DNA from: Candidatus Magnetomicrobium cryptolimnococcus | GTDB taxonomy: Bacteria > Nitrospirota > Thermodesulfovibrionia > Thermodesulfovibrionales > Magnetobacteriaceae | NCBI GenBank assembly: GCA_018606805.1 | Contig: JAGYWI010000020.1 | Location: 1-43,289, forward strand | DNA: 43,289 nt | Reading direction: 5' to 3' | Shown: positions 8,590 to 13,963 of the stretch, piece by piece | Layout of the letters: each line of letters starts with the position of its first letter | Position numbering within the stretch: position 1 is the first letter of the stretch | The notes under the pieces: model-generated | What the model was told of the DNA's origin: nothing | The model's input: only the letters and a program-made list of their open reading frames with translations | Databases searched by the model: none | Made by a program: the position numbers and the translations under genes

Positions 8590-10277
8590 CAGGCGGAGTG
8601 GTGTCTTCCCTTGGCAAGGGAATAGCCGCCTCAGCAGTAGGCGCCCTCCTTGAGGCAAGAGGCATACAGGTTAATATACAAAAATTAGACCCATACATAA
8701 ATATAGACCCGGGCACACTGAGTCCTTATCAACACGGTGAGGTCTTTGTTGCAGATGATGGCACGGAGGCAGACCTAGACCTTGGCCATTACGAGCGCTT
8801 TACGCATATTACGACGGCTAAAGCCAATAACTACACAACCGGCAAGATTTATTATAACGTTATAGAAAAAGAACGGCGCGGTGAATACCTCGGTGAGACC
8901 GTTCAGGTGGTGCCACACATAACGGATGAGATAAAGGCCGTTATAAAGGCAGCAGGGGCTAACGTAGATGTCTTAATTGTAGAAATAGGGGGCACTATCG
9001 GTGATATAGAAAGCCTGCCGTTTTTAGAAGCCATACGGCAAATGCCCTATGATGTTGGAAAAAATCATGTTATGTACCTGCATCTAACGCTTGTGCCATA
9101 CATACCAACGGCTGGTGAGCTTAAGACGAAACCATCCCAGCACAGCGTTAAAGAGCTACGCGCTATCGGCATACAGCCAGATGCCCTTATTTGCCGTTGC
9201 GATAGGACACTACCGCCTGATATAAAGAAAAAAATAGCCCTCCACACTAATCTTGAAGAAGAGGCCGTCATCAGTGCTGTAGACGTTGAAACCATCTATG
9301 AAGTACCAATCGTGTTTCATAACGAGGGGCTTGACGATATAATAACTAGAAAGTTTAAATTTGAAACCAAAGAGCCTAACTTAAGCAAGTGGCAGCGCGT
9401 GGCTAAAAGGGTTAAAAGTCCTGTAAATCAAGTAAAAATAGCCCTTGTTGGGAAATACACGGGACTTAAGGATTCATACAAAAGCCTGACGGAGGCCCTG
9501 ATACACGGCGGGATTGCTAATGAAGCGAAGGTGGTCTTTAAGTGGCTGGATTCGGAGGCACTTGAAAAAACTGCAAATAATGCGCTTGGTAGTTTAGACG
9601 ATAACACACTAGAGCGCTATCTTGGCGATACGGACGGCATTTTAATACCCGGTGGCTTTGGCCAACGTGGCATAGAGGGTAAAATCTGTGCTGCTGGTTA
9701 TGCCAGAAGGAAGGGGATTCCGTTTTTTGGTATATGTCTTGGCATGCAGTGTGCTGTTATAGAGTTTGCTAGAAGCGTTTGCGGCTTAAAAGAAGCCAAT
9801 AGTACGGAATTCGATATAAATACGCCAGAGCCTGTTATTTACTTAATGCAACAGTGGTATAACGAGCGAACCGGGGGAATTGAAAGACGTGATATGGAAA
9901 GCGAAAAGGGTGGTACTATGAGACTTGGTGCTTATCCTTGTGTAATTAAGGCTTGTACGCATACAATGGCAGCCTACGGGCAAACGCTTATAAGCGAACG
10001 CCACCGCCATCGGTACGAATTTAATAACAGCTATCGCCAGATACTGCAAGCAAGCGGGCTATCAATAGTTGGTACAAGTCCGGATAACACGCTTGTTGAG
10101 ATGATAGAAATAGAAAGCCATCCGTGGTTTGTTGGCTGTCAGTTTCATCCGGAGTTTAAATCCCGCCCAACTGAGCCGCACCCGCTTTTTAAGGCGTTTA
10201 TTTGGAGCTGCCTTAAGGAAAAACATGCCCTTTTTCCTTACGTAGGGGCGCAAGAGCACACGGCTGACATCCAATAA
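8568..10277 (+). CDS. pyrG: CTP synthase
   Basis: [20 protein letters not shown]-terminus. The C-terminal GATase domain has GICLGMQ and HPEF motifs. The gene overlaps the kdsB end. Confidence 0.95.
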
Positions 10278-10326
10278 TAGTGGAAACCATACCGCTTATA
10301 AGCCTTGAAGACATATGTTTTAATTA
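10215..10326 (+). repeat. Direct repeat L: 3-prime end of pyrG plus the first 16 codons of the ABC-ATPase gene (112 bp)
   Basis: ~95 percent identical to 13852-13963, which is the functional pyrG-stop / GTG-start junction of the ATPase gene. This copy ends the real pyrG. Its ATPase fragment (METIPLISLEDICFN) is truncated by a stop. Confidence 0.85.
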
Positions 10327-10369
10327 AAATCTTGGTTATGGGTTATAACATAAGTATAGTCGTGTTTCT

Positions 10370-10621
10370 ATGCAAGCAACAAAAAATTATTATCAATGTA
10401 TGCAAATTGCTCATCTGATAAATCAATTATTTGAGTTAGGTTCATTATTAAAGTCTATGGTATCAATAAAGACAAGTATAAAACATATCTGGGAAATTAT
10501 ACTGGGTGAATTGAGAAAGACATTAAATATGGAAGAGTTAGAATTATTATTAAGCGTAAAATGTAGATTCGTTTTGGATAAAAATACTGGAGAATACCCT
10601 ACTCCATTATTATGTAATTAG
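10370..10621 (+). CDS. Hypothetical small protein (83 aa) inside the inserted segment
   Basis: Open frame only. No recognisable motifs and no clear RBS. Confidence 0.25.
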   Translation: MQATKNYYQCMQIAHLINQLFELGSLLKSMVSIKTSIKHIWEIILGELRKTLNMEELELLLSVKCRFVLDKNTGEYPTPLLCN

Positions 10622-11028
10622 GGCTAACCTTTTGACAGAAAGAATAAGGAGGGAAACGTCAATATAGCTTAAAATTCTGGTATTGTAAAACATACAGCTC
10701 GTTGGTACATAGCTGAAAGGCTATAGGTATGCTCATAAATGTTTTATCATTATCAATAGAATCTTCTTTCTGAATCGCTGGCAAAATAGCAGTTGTATAG
10801 ATTTTTTTGTTAACACTATAACCGCTTATAGAAATGGGTATTGTGCTCCATCTCTTTTGTCAAAAAACGTTCCTTTAGTCATTAAGGGCTGAACTATTAC
10901 AATAACACTAGTAAATGGGAGATTTAACATCTCTCATTTACTATTCGGACAAACCTTTGGTTTCAAACCCTGAAAAACTCTTTAATAACCGGTATCGTAT
11001 TCTGTTAACATTTTTAATCAGCAATTAT

Positions 11029-11559
11029 TTAATCTCTTGTAATCTTTTGAATAAATTCAGCTACCGTATTTGTATTTTTTATAATATCCTTTATATTTTC
11101 TAATTGTTGTATGTCTTTGATAGCCTTGATTGTTTCAATTAATTCTAAACTATCAAATCCAAACTTTACTTCTAAGGCCAATTCGATACCCTCTTTTAGC
11201 CCTTCTTCCCTGCCTTCTTCTCTACCTTGTCGAAACCTGTAATCCTTTGTTAAATCAAATATAAAAGCCATCTTATCTACCTCCTCTCCAACGTAATCTT
11301 GTAAATCTCGTAAATTAGATAATATCTCCAATTGTCTTATATATTTACTCTGGAGTGTTTCTTCTTTTACTAATTCCCTTATCCTCTCAAGTATCTCCCT
11401 TATAAACATTCGAACATCTCTACCCTTATAATCGCACAATATAGAAATAATGACCTCCTCTGGTCTATCTGCGTATAAGAATTTTGCACAATCAACTGTC
11501 CTCATGTCTATTATGGTGTAGCTGTGGGTTGTGTTATCTTCATCAATGTTACTTTTCAT
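11029..11559 (-). CDS. Rpn/YhgA-family protein, C-terminal part (split gene, part 2)
   Basis: It has the C-terminal REEGREEGLKEGIELALEVKFG..LELIETIKAIKDIQQLENI tail of the same family, compare ORF 8-436. Together with 11562-11903 it makes a ~289-aa Rpn-sized protein interrupted by a frameshift. Confidence 0.55.
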   Translation of the reverse strand: MKSNIDEDNTTHSYTIIDMRTVDCAKFLYADRPEEVIISILCDYKGRDVRMFIREILERIRELVKEETLQSKYIRQLEILSNLRDLQDYVGEEVDKMAFIFDLTKDYRFRQGREEGREEGLKEGIELALEVKFGFDSLELIETIKAIKDIQQLENIKDIIKNTNTVAEFIQKITRD

Positions 11560-11561
11560 CT

Positions 11562-12191: not shown

Positions 12192-12459
12192 AGAATGAGT
12201 TTGCCCTGGATTACCCTATTTTAGATTTGCATTTTTTATAATTAAAGTATATTATAAAAGCAGTACACTAATAAATATACTTCGGGGGGAGGAGTATGTA
12301 TTTAAAAAATGTGCTTTCTAAGAAGATAAGTCTTTTATCTATTCTATTCCTTCACTATTATATATAACAACAAAAGACATCACCAGGCTCTTGGATACAA
12401 GAAACCAATAGATGTATATTTGAACGGCTTTAACTAAAAAAATGATAAAAGAGGAGTAA

Positions 12460-12996
12460 CAAAAAGATATTAAAAATTGTCTTGACAAAGGGGTCCACCA
12501 TATTTTTTATACTACAAACTTAGGGTCAACGTGGAATTATTTTAAGGGTAGTTTGTCGGTGCTTGCGTCGGGCGACTTAGATGGAGATGGCAAATCTGAT
12601 ATTGTTGGTGCCACCAGCGATAGTAAGATTTTTTACACACTTGCCTCTACGGGTTTTTCGCAGTGGAATTATGTTTCCTCTGGGGCATTAAGCCAAGTAA
12701 CAGTTGGTGATCTTAATGGAGATGGCAAGGATGATATTGTAGGACTTTCGCAAAATAAGATATTTTATACAGTAGATTATGGTACGAATTGGAATACCAT
12801 ACCTGGTGAGCTATATTATTTGACAACAGGGGATTACGATGGAGATAGCAGAGATGATATTGCCGGAATTAATACAAGTGGTCAGATATTCTATACAACT
12901 AACTTAGGTACATTATGGAAACAAGTAACCGGTAACCTCTTTGCCATAAAGTCTGTTGATACAGAGCGGAAAAAAGGTTTTACCTCTATAGAATAA
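12460..12996 (+). pseudogene. 5-prime-truncated FG-GAP/VCBS-type beta-propeller repeat protein fragment
   Basis: Four ~45-aa repeats of the form GDLNGDGKDDIVG...KIFYT.. carry Ca-binding-like DxDGDG motifs. The repeat frame stays open upstream of the TTG at 12553, back to a stop at 12457. There is no signal peptide, so this is a remnant of a longer gene. Confidence 0.5.
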
Positions 12997-13312
12997 AATA
13001 GTCCCTCTTTACTGAAGTAAAGCGGAGCAATCTCTCTTTAAGATAAAGGAACAGATTGTTCCGCTACCATTTATAATGGCATATATCCGAATTTGTCATC
13101 GAAATGTGCTATAAATATAAATAGTAAGTATCCTTTTAGCGTTTCTTCTTTATGAATTCTAAGGTGGACTGATTTGTCAAGACCGTTTTTTTTATTTTTA
13201 GTTTCCCTCTAAACTTTTTTTGTTTAGAAAGAAAACCGTTTTTCATTTTCCCTGTCCAAATTCTTCAGTCCATTATATTCCAATTTAAGATTTAACGTGG
13301 TATAATATTTCT

Positions 13313-13786
13313 ATGAATAATCAAATAATCATAACTGATAGTAATATATCTACAGAGAAATCACTATACGAAACTGATTTTTATCAATGGGCGCTTCATA
13401 ATGCTGAGCTGATAAGACAAGGTAGAATTAGTGACATAGATTTAGACAATATAGTTGAGGAATTAGAAAGTATGGGGAGGAATAATAGAAGAGAGTTGAT
13501 AAGCAGATTTTTAGTATTAATAATGCACTTACTCAAATGGCAATACCAATCAAATAAGCGTTCTAAAAGCTGGATTTCAACAATAAACACACAAAGAGCG
13601 GAGATTAGGTTTATACTCGAAGACAGTCCAAGTTTAAAACATGATATAGAACTAATTATAGAAAAGGCCTTTCAAAATGCAAAGGTATCATTTGAAAAAG
13701 AGACAAATATTAATAAAAAGCACCTACCCCAGACTTGCCCATATATATTTGAACAGTTAAGTGATTATGAGTTTTGGCCTGAATAA
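13313..13786 (+). CDS. DUF29-family protein
   Basis: DFYQWALHNAELIRQGRISDIDLDNIVEELESMGRNNRRELISRFLVLIMHLLKWQYQSNKRSKSWISTINTQRAEI matches the conserved DUF29 pattern. A TATAAT-like box sits 7 nt before the start, so the transcript may be leaderless. Confidence 0.7.
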   Translation: MNNQIIITDSNISTEKSLYETDFYQWALHNAELIRQGRISDIDLDNIVEELESMGRNNRRELISRFLVLIMHLLKWQYQSNKRSKSWISTINTQRAEIRFILEDSPSLKHDIELIIEKAFQNAKVSFEKETNINKKHLPQTCPYIFEQLSDYEFWPE

Positions 13787-13792
13787 TTTTAG

Positions 13793-13963
13793 AAGAGGAG
13801 TGGCATACTATGTATATAATAATGATTTCATCAGAGTTAGCGCCGGTGGCAAAGGAAAAACATACCCTCTTTCCTTACGTAGGGGCACAAGAGCACACGG
13901 CTAAAATCCAATAATAGTGGAAACCATACCGCTTATAAGCCTTGAAGACATATGTTTTAATTA
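13793..13963 (+). repeat. Mosaic junction: ~63-bp copy of the glgA RBS/start (13793-13855) fused to direct repeat R (13852-13963, pyrG 3-prime end + ABC-ATPase start)
   Basis: 13793-13855 is near-identical to 17568-17632, and 13852-13963 is ~95 percent identical to 10215-10326. The junction is at a shared aagg. A 34-codon chimeric ORF (13810-13914, [34 protein letters not shown]) spans it. Confidence 0.85.

Follow-up and report, generated by a model that had tools for sequence, protein, structure and literature searches.

In Candidatus Magnetomicrobium cryptolimnococcus, the interval between the CTP synthase gene pyrG and the glycogen/starch synthase gene glgA was found to contain two unrelated segments, A and B, arranged in tandem and each bracketed by copies of the same two flanking repeats. 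The analysis covered contig JAGYWI010000020.1 of assembly GCA_018606805.1, a stretch of 43,289 nt that is referred to below as the window. A preliminary description of this window had interpreted the DNA corresponding to segment A as an insertion into an ancestral junction between pyrG and an ABC ATPase gene, accompanied by duplication of the 112-bp target. This interpretation was not supported, since the duplication has two parts, which meet at a joint that, judging from its flanks, is a product of illegitimate recombination. We favour a history in which A replaced B in one allele, after which a B allele would have been joined back by an illegitimate, microhomology-mediated join, and we assign it a probability of about 0.45. 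The locus is an ordinary rearrangement scar left by known processes, with no new element, enzyme or mechanism. The value of this result is mainly corrective: what appeared to be an island with an unusually long target duplication is better explained as a scar of illegitimate recombination between two versions of the same interval.

Two repeat pairs and the joint between them

The order of the locus is pyrG-L-A-R·L'-B-R'-glgA, where L and L' are the two copies of the left repeat (112 nt), and R and R' are those of the right repeat (61 nt). A and B are thus each enclosed by one left and one right segment. The elements that define the duplication are as follows.

10215..10326, + strand: repeat L, consisting of the pyrG tail and stop and the first 15 ATPase codons (positions 4115-4226 of contig L001 in the second assembly presented below)
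10280..10327, + strand: dead 5' stub of the ATPase gene, identified by translation, which reads VETIPLISLEDICFN followed by a stop
13795..13855, + strand: repeat R, a copy of the glgA ribosome-binding site and codons 1-15, also present in the second assembly
13852..13855, + strand: AAGG microhomology at the R·L' joint, from a three-way comparison of flanks, with glgA codon 15 fused to pyrG codon -20
13852..13963, + strand: repeat L', a displaced copy of the pyrG tail with the functional ATPase start
17571..17631, + strand: repeat R', the functional glgA ribosome-binding site (GAGGAG) and first 15 codons

Formal alignment of L with L' was ungapped and gave 107 identical positions out of 112 (95.5%), in agreement with the identity of about 95% announced in the preliminary description. 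The five mismatches (10227, 10232, 10250, 10266 and 10268) were all located in the pyrG-coding part, where L carries G10227, T10232, G10250, G10266 and C10268, and the final 58 nt were identical. By comparison, the chance expectation for exact 60-mers in the window is about 2e-26. In both copies, the pyrG stop is followed by 2 nt and then by GTGGAAACC, the GTG start of the ATPase gene. The left copy of this gene is limited to 15 sense codons and a stop, whose TAA straddles the boundary between L and A, whereas the right copy continues into a full ATPase gene of 220 amino acids. The first part of L corresponds to the last 20 codons and stop of pyrG, and the C-terminal tail encoded there matches the pyrG tails of Nitrospirota. 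Overall, these features had been described correctly, as had the former adjacency of pyrG and the ATPase gene, with a genuine Nitrospirota-type pyrG C-terminus on the left and a genuine ATPase start on the right.

A repeat search of the whole window identified a second pair, which had been overlooked. Repeats R and R' are identical at 60 of their 61 positions, the difference being T13801 in R. R directly adjoins L', and its counterpart at the start of glgA is located 3.7 kb downstream. L contains the genuine end of pyrG and R' the genuine N-terminus of glgA; the displaced copies are therefore R and the pyrG portion of L'.

The R·L' joint connects the two ends of one segment, which runs from the pyrG tail to the 5' end of glgA: its distal end is fused, in direct orientation, to its proximal end. 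The AAGG motif is found in both parental sequences: glgA reads …GGTGGCAAAGG followed by TGGGAGG, and pyrG reads …GCTGCCTTAAGG followed by AAAAACAT. The joint itself reads …GGTGGCAAAGG followed by AAAAACAT, and the fusion is in frame. At the two other boundaries, L passes into A as …TTTTAATTA followed by AAATCTTGG, and A passes into R as …TTTTAGAA followed by GAGGAGTGG. A single illegitimate, microhomology-mediated join would account for both the L/L' and the R/R' duplications. The two fillings thus placed in tandem are similar in size (3468 bp for A and 3607 bp for B) and unrelated; no similarity between them was detected by blastn or tblastx, which ruled out A as a decayed copy of B.

The window was compared with a second assembly of the same species, GCA_022760095.1 (Candidatus Magnetoovum sp. 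WYHC-5), obtained from cells amplified by multiple displacement amplification (MDA), sequenced as 150-bp Illumina reads and assembled with IDBA (PMC9106300). The two were about 99.4% identical and differed by single-nucleotide polymorphisms (SNPs), indels and one hypervariable stretch. Contig L001 of this assembly, which spans window positions 6101-11127, carries the L-A junction; contig L162, spanning positions 12730-22218, carries the A-R and R·L' junctions, as well as R'. Four of the L/L' differences and the R/R' difference were common to both assemblies. Each assembly also had a private change inside a repeat, and private SNPs were present beside the repeats. Since four L/L' differences are fixed across both assemblies, two distinct repeat copies exist, and since the junctions are shared along with these fixed differences, the duplication was inherited and is older than the split between the two strains.

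The density of SNPs between the assemblies was 1 in 4.1 kb in the left flank and approximately 0.1-0.5% on the right side; it was considered as a signal of recombination breakpoints and set aside, being too heterogeneous among genes. Protein searches with pyrG, the ATPase and the vault-like protein encoded by segment B returned only the two assemblies of the species, after which identity dropped to 63-71%. Among the matches listed, the nearest pyrG reached 71% protein identity in genome contigs and 61% in metagenome contigs, and tblastn of the neighbouring genes detected no ATPase/vault/glgA synteny around these loci.

Contents of segment A

As had been proposed, segment A is accessory DNA, AT-rich and derived from mobile elements. 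Its GC content (0.334), determined to check for a deviation in composition, was the lowest of any 3.5-kb stretch of the window, with 0.389 ± 0.022 for the other stretches. The following features were recognized.

10327..13794, no strand assigned: segment A, 3468 bp of mobile-element debris with one intact DUF29 gene
10370..10621, + strand: C-terminal tail of a DDE transposase (83-amino-acid open reading frame, ORF), matching the last ~65 residues of proteins of 384-534 amino acids
11029..11903, - strand: frameshifted pseudogene of an Rpn-family (PD-(D/E)XK) nuclease/putative transposase (TIGR01784, 1.7e-9; PDDEXK_2, 3.9e-5)
11961..12191, + strand: C-terminal tail of an ISAs1-family transposase (NF033564, 3.9e-21, 75.5 bits for a cutoff of 70, profile positions 269-314 of 314)
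12351..12437, + strand: possible tail of an IS481/IS3-type transposase (...HHQALGYKKPIDVY...), a weak match (NF033577, E = 0.0034; NF033516, E = 0.0058; last 20 profile positions)
12496..12996, + strand: C-terminal fragment of an FG-GAP/tectonin beta-propeller (FG-GAP, 1.4e-14; Tectonin, 1.9e-9)
13313..13786, + strand: intact DUF29 gene (PF01724, 2.8e-47, full profile), with an identical protein in the second assembly

The ORF at 10370-10621 had been considered an orphan, which it is not: the proteins that it matches carry DDE_Tnp_1_assoc, DDE_Tnp_1 or DDE_Tnp_1_4 domains, with an ISAs1-like architecture. Its 5' side is cut off near the L/A boundary, and it is frameshifted in the second assembly. 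The Rpn-like pseudogene is split into two ORFs, 11562-11903 and 11029-11559. Its earlier identification as a frameshifted Rpn gene was supported weakly: the TIGR01784 match was below the cutoff but, once the frameshift was bridged, covered nearly the whole profile (positions 16-258 of 273). The ORF at 8-436 (+ strand) resembles the C-terminal half of this pseudogene (tblastx, 3.6e-6), and both contain weak Yae1_N-like repeats. The Rpn-like family is therefore present in several copies in the genome.

The ISAs1 tail, the truncated beta-propeller fragment and the DUF29 gene were all recovered as previously named. The first of these also matched DDE_Tnp_1, and its blastn matches included annotated ISAs1 transposase genes of cyanobacterial plasmids. 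No start that would give a full-length gene was found upstream of the FG-GAP/tectonin fragment. The DUF29 gene ends 8 nt ahead of R. An extended -10 box (TGgTATAAT) ends 6 nt ahead of its ATG, and its mRNA may therefore be leaderless. The region just upstream of the gene (13116-13299) was hypervariable between the two assemblies (window positions 13098-13312 and L162 positions 368-642). Moreover, a perfect 17-nt inverted repeat was observed at 11925-11941 and 13098-13114, and its right arm immediately precedes this hypervariable stretch.

Transposase genes were represented in A only by C-terminal tails and the frameshifted Rpn-like gene, and none was complete. A six-frame Pfam scan of positions 10301-13830 yielded DUF29, DDE_Tnp_1, FG-GAP/Tectonin and PDDEXK_2, and no integrase or recombinase. 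In a repeat search of positions 10100-14100, no inverted repeats were found to pair the ends of A (10327 and 13794), the only strong pair being internal. Segment A had no phage match, its plasmid matches were limited to ISAs1 genes, and PADLOC returned nothing beyond generic similarity to ABC ATPases; a known phage, plasmid or defence element was therefore ruled out. Searches for RNA elements (Rfam) and for a tRNA gene found none, and a scan for promoters and terminators did not exceed shuffled expectation.

Favoured history and competing explanations

In the history that we favour, the ancestor would have carried pyrG-ATPase-vault-glgA. Foreign segment A would have replaced B by homology-facilitated illegitimate recombination anchored in glgA, to give an allele pyrG-A-glgA. 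A B-type copy, from the sister chromosome or from a related strain, would then have been joined back, with one homologous crossover in or beyond glgA and the AAGG illegitimate joint as the other, leaving both alleles in cis. No transposase or integrase would be responsible for the duplications.

Homology-facilitated illegitimate recombination, known from Streptococcus pneumoniae, Acinetobacter baylyi, Pseudomonas stutzeri and E. coli, combines one homologous end with one illegitimate end at 3-10 bp of microhomology, and the insertion is typically accompanied by a deletion of similar size (PMC3240628). It has also been used to explain displaced tandem modules at type VI secretion system (T6SS) and Rhs loci of Vibrio (PMC5361080). 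The present locus is comparable in the 4-nt AAGG at its joint, in the similar sizes of A and B, and in its conserved flanks, which could serve as an anchor; it differs in that the homologous anchor is putative and natural transformation is not known for this uncultured organism. As in the displaced effector/immunity modules of Vibrio cholerae, old and new modules stand side by side and a piece of the conserved neighbour is duplicated. Unlike in those loci, the old module is here housekeeping-like and the neighbouring module is junk, with no toxin/immunity array.

The boundaries of A are consistent with such a replacement. A begins 49 nt past the pyrG stop, inside a truncated transposase remnant, and ends 15 nt ahead of the glgA-type ATG. 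Such a close fit to both genes would be expected if selection had maintained functional pyrG and glgA genes in an A-only allele, and would be coincidental for a segment that had simply encroached on a redundant copy. On its left side, A cuts through the transposase remnant, as expected of an illegitimate joint. The replacement step would explain where A starts, where it ends and why its size is close to that of B; the sizes are observed, and that A once replaced B is what we infer. Of the four fixed L/L' differences, three affect third codon positions in the reading frame of pyrG, which is suggestive of L' having diverged while still in the working pyrG of another lineage, with a binomial estimate of p ~0.11 that is not significant.

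Several points weigh against this history. The order of events, like the existence of a separate A allele, is deduced from the positions of the boundaries. Mismatches cluster in the pyrG tail with marginal significance (p = 0.025, or 0.06 with the fixed differences only), and this cluster could equally result from pyrG having later been replaced by homologous recombination. The second assembly is interrupted at 11127 and 12730, and continuity across the middle of A is provided by the window contig alone. Finally, no A-only allele, B-only allele or empty site was found among the two assemblies of the species, and the next relatives are too distant.

A tandem duplication in situ is rather unlikely, although it is the most probable of the alternatives. 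Here, a 3.78-kb unit extending from pyrG codon -20 to glgA codon 15 would have been duplicated at AAGG. Insertion sequences (IS) would then have invaded the redundant left copy, of which deletions would have left only a 60-nt piece of the ATPase gene and the glgA stub of 61 nt. Tandem segmental duplications whose joints arise by illegitimate recombination at short homologies have been studied in Salmonella and E. coli, and the R·L' joint, which fuses glgA codon 15 to pyrG codon -20 in direct orientation at a 4-nt microhomology, is exactly like a joint of this type. The two units are also similar in length (3641 and 3780 bp), and A is full of truncated transposase genes, as in a decaying redundant copy. 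However, the two units have only their ends in common (112 and 61 nt), and no trace of B was detected in the unrelated interior of A. Both deletion ends would have to fall by chance no more than 60 nt from the ends of the unit, and A contains cargo other than IS, of deviant composition (the DUF29 gene and the FG-GAP fragment). Moreover, four fixed differences in the 52 nt of the pyrG tail, versus one in 121 nt elsewhere, would be hard to obtain from copies that were initially identical.

The insertion originally proposed can be amended to include R, and in this form we regard it as improbable. A single foreign fragment of 3.53 kb (A plus R), from a relative with DUF29 just upstream of glgA, would have entered the pyrG-ATPase junction through two staggered illegitimate joints, with duplication of 112 bp. 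One event would then suffice, the end of A exactly at the glgA ribosome-binding site would be accounted for, and both AAGG and the foreign composition of A would suit such an entry. Nevertheless, L and L' would have been identical at the start, and four fixed differences are found in the pyrG tail, when R, derived from the donor, differs from R' at only 1 of 61 positions. No donor with a DUF29-glgA arrangement was found, and a staggered duplication of 112 bp is not a routine product of any mechanism known to us. Insertion of an IS with target-site duplication, to which the ISAs1-type and other DDE transposase remnants in A might point, does not fit: the repeat measures 112 bp instead of 2-14 bp, neither element ends nor terminal inverted repeats are present at the boundaries, the transposase genes are reduced to their 3' tails with no intact transposase or integrase, and the right repeat is flanked by the 61-nt glgA copy and not by element DNA.

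It is very improbable that A represents what remains of an integrative island inserted by a site-specific recombinase at the pyrG 3' end, with the 112-bp repeats as attL and attR. Direct repeats of about 100 bp resemble the att sites of such islands, and those observed here bound AT-rich accessory DNA at the 3' end of a gene, with a 58-nt identical core and a diverged arm; the left repeat completes pyrG and the right one is displaced, as at att sites. In contrast, no remnant of an integrase or recombinase was present in any of the six frames, no tRNA gene was found, and A consists of transposase debris and not of a coherent element, with no phage match and with plasmid matches only to ISAs1. 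The glgA stub (R) between the island DNA and L' would also be left unexplained. The least probable explanation of all is an artefact, either chimeras created during MDA or the erroneous joining of two co-existing strains by the assembler. MDA makes microhomology chimeras, the WYHC-5 genome was derived from amplified cells, short reads and IDBA, and its assembly breaks inside A. An artefact is nonetheless unlikely because all three junctions are also present in the second assembly, which is distinguished from the window by SNPs and indels both inside the repeats and near them; the fixed L/L' differences indicate two distinct copies, and a de Bruijn assembler requires reads across R·L'.

Homologous recombination could resolve this structure, with loss of A after exchange between L and L', and loss of the ATPase-vault pair after exchange between R and R'. 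A B-only allele would read the L-specific bases running into …TTAATTACGGTAGC, and an A-only allele would read the R-specific T13801 running into …GCAAAGGTGGGAGGG. The ATPase/vault-like pair may not be stably linked to pyrG. It is a long shot that the population makes use of the tandem as a 'heterozygote frozen in cis', with RecA-mediated L x L' and R x R' resolution, segregation of the vault module and selection of a small chimeric ORF for translational coupling. If this were the case, R x R' would place glgA behind DUF29, L x L' would restore pyrG-ATPase, and the cells, possibly polyploid giant magnetotactic ones, could segregate variants with and without the vault-like module. Another possibility is that an Rpn-family nuclease made the AAGG joint, as RecA-independent recombination activity has been described for this family (PMC5350276). 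The locus provides a natural example, in the poorly sampled magnetotactic Nitrospirota, of alternative gene contents between conserved genes ending up in tandem.

Flanking genes, segment B and other repeats

The genes surrounding and following segment A, together with the chimeric ORF formed at the joint, are listed below.

8568..10277, + strand: pyrG, CTP synthase, 569 amino acids (Pfam CTP_synth_N, 1.9e-123, and GATase)
13810..13914, + strand: chimeric in-frame ORF of 34 codons, identified by translation (glgA codons 1-15 and the last 19 pyrG codons)
13917..14579, + strand: ECF/CbiO-type ABC ATPase, 220 amino acids, first gene of B (ABC_tran, 2.4e-30)
14620..17082, + strand: major-vault-protein-like gene, 820 amino acids, second gene of B (MVP_shoulder, 1e-25; Vault_3, 4.2e-8)
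17586..19055, + strand: glgA, glycogen/starch synthase, 489 amino acids (Glyco_transf_5, 1.9e-66)

The 34-codon ORF is intact in both assemblies and stops at the old pyrG stop, 2 nt ahead of the ATPase GTG. An AGGAG motif, derived from glgA together with the ATG, is located 7 nt upstream of this ORF, and no Shine-Dalgarno-like motif was found upstream of the ATPase start at 13917. Because the ATPase gene has no Shine-Dalgarno motif of its own and starts 2 nt after an ORF that borrows the glgA ribosome-binding site, its translation may remain coupled to this ORF, as it presumably once was to pyrG. Against such coupling, an in-frame fusion has a 1-in-3 chance of arising by accident, and about 40% of the ORFs scanned likewise had no obvious Shine-Dalgarno motif. 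The locus also illustrates the origin of a chimeric leader ORF with the potential to maintain translation of the gene behind it. For annotation purposes, this fusion ORF, the 15-codon ATPase stub and the transposase tails should not be called genes.

Segment B (13964-17570) comprises the ATPase gene, the vault-like gene and an array of 21-nt hairpin repeats, with a GC content of 0.388 that is typical of the window. The best NCBIfam matches of the ATPase were ECF_ATPase and cbiO, all below the equivalog cutoffs. This gene is an orphan, with no adjacent cbiM, cbiN, cbiQ or ECF T/S component genes, and its closest homologue on a long contig likewise has no transporter partners nearby. The vault-like protein is a bacterial homologue of the eukaryotic major vault protein, with 6690 homologues at E<1e-20. 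The nearest of these were 68% identical and were found in unrelated metagenome-assembled genomes (one of them named as Eremiobacterota), where the gene occurs by itself. The closest homologues of the vault-like gene and those of the ATPase gene were located in unrelated contexts and not next to each other, and the pairing of a vault-like gene with an ECF-type ATPase gene appears to be specific to this lineage.

Several other repeats were observed in the window. A 21/22-nt unit, CAGGGAGGTGT(G/A)CCTT(C/T)ACAC, forms tandem arrays at 17144-17357 and 43058-43131, with single units near 5620 and 36158. A small hairpin (GGTGTG…CACACC) lies within each unit; the arrays are intergenic, located after genes, and vary in sequence and by indels between the two assemblies. 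An intergenic family resembling repetitive extragenic palindromes or miniature inverted-repeat transposable elements (REP/MITE-like), with the core GAATGAGGGCGCTGCCCTCA, was represented by a 68-nt inverted pair at 6007-6074 and 29706-29773 (96% identity) and by three direct copies (17102-17147, 19190-19235 and 29703-29748). The gyrA gene (3100-5511) is bracketed by inverted repeats of about 160 nt at 2802-2962 and 5759-5921, which are 87-98% complementary and could be either a repeated intergenic element or the borders of a potentially invertible segment around an essential gene. Finally, an ORF of 1336 amino acids with no Pfam match (22697-26707, - strand) consists mostly of 54/63-nt periodic repeats, with 28 register-shifted copies.

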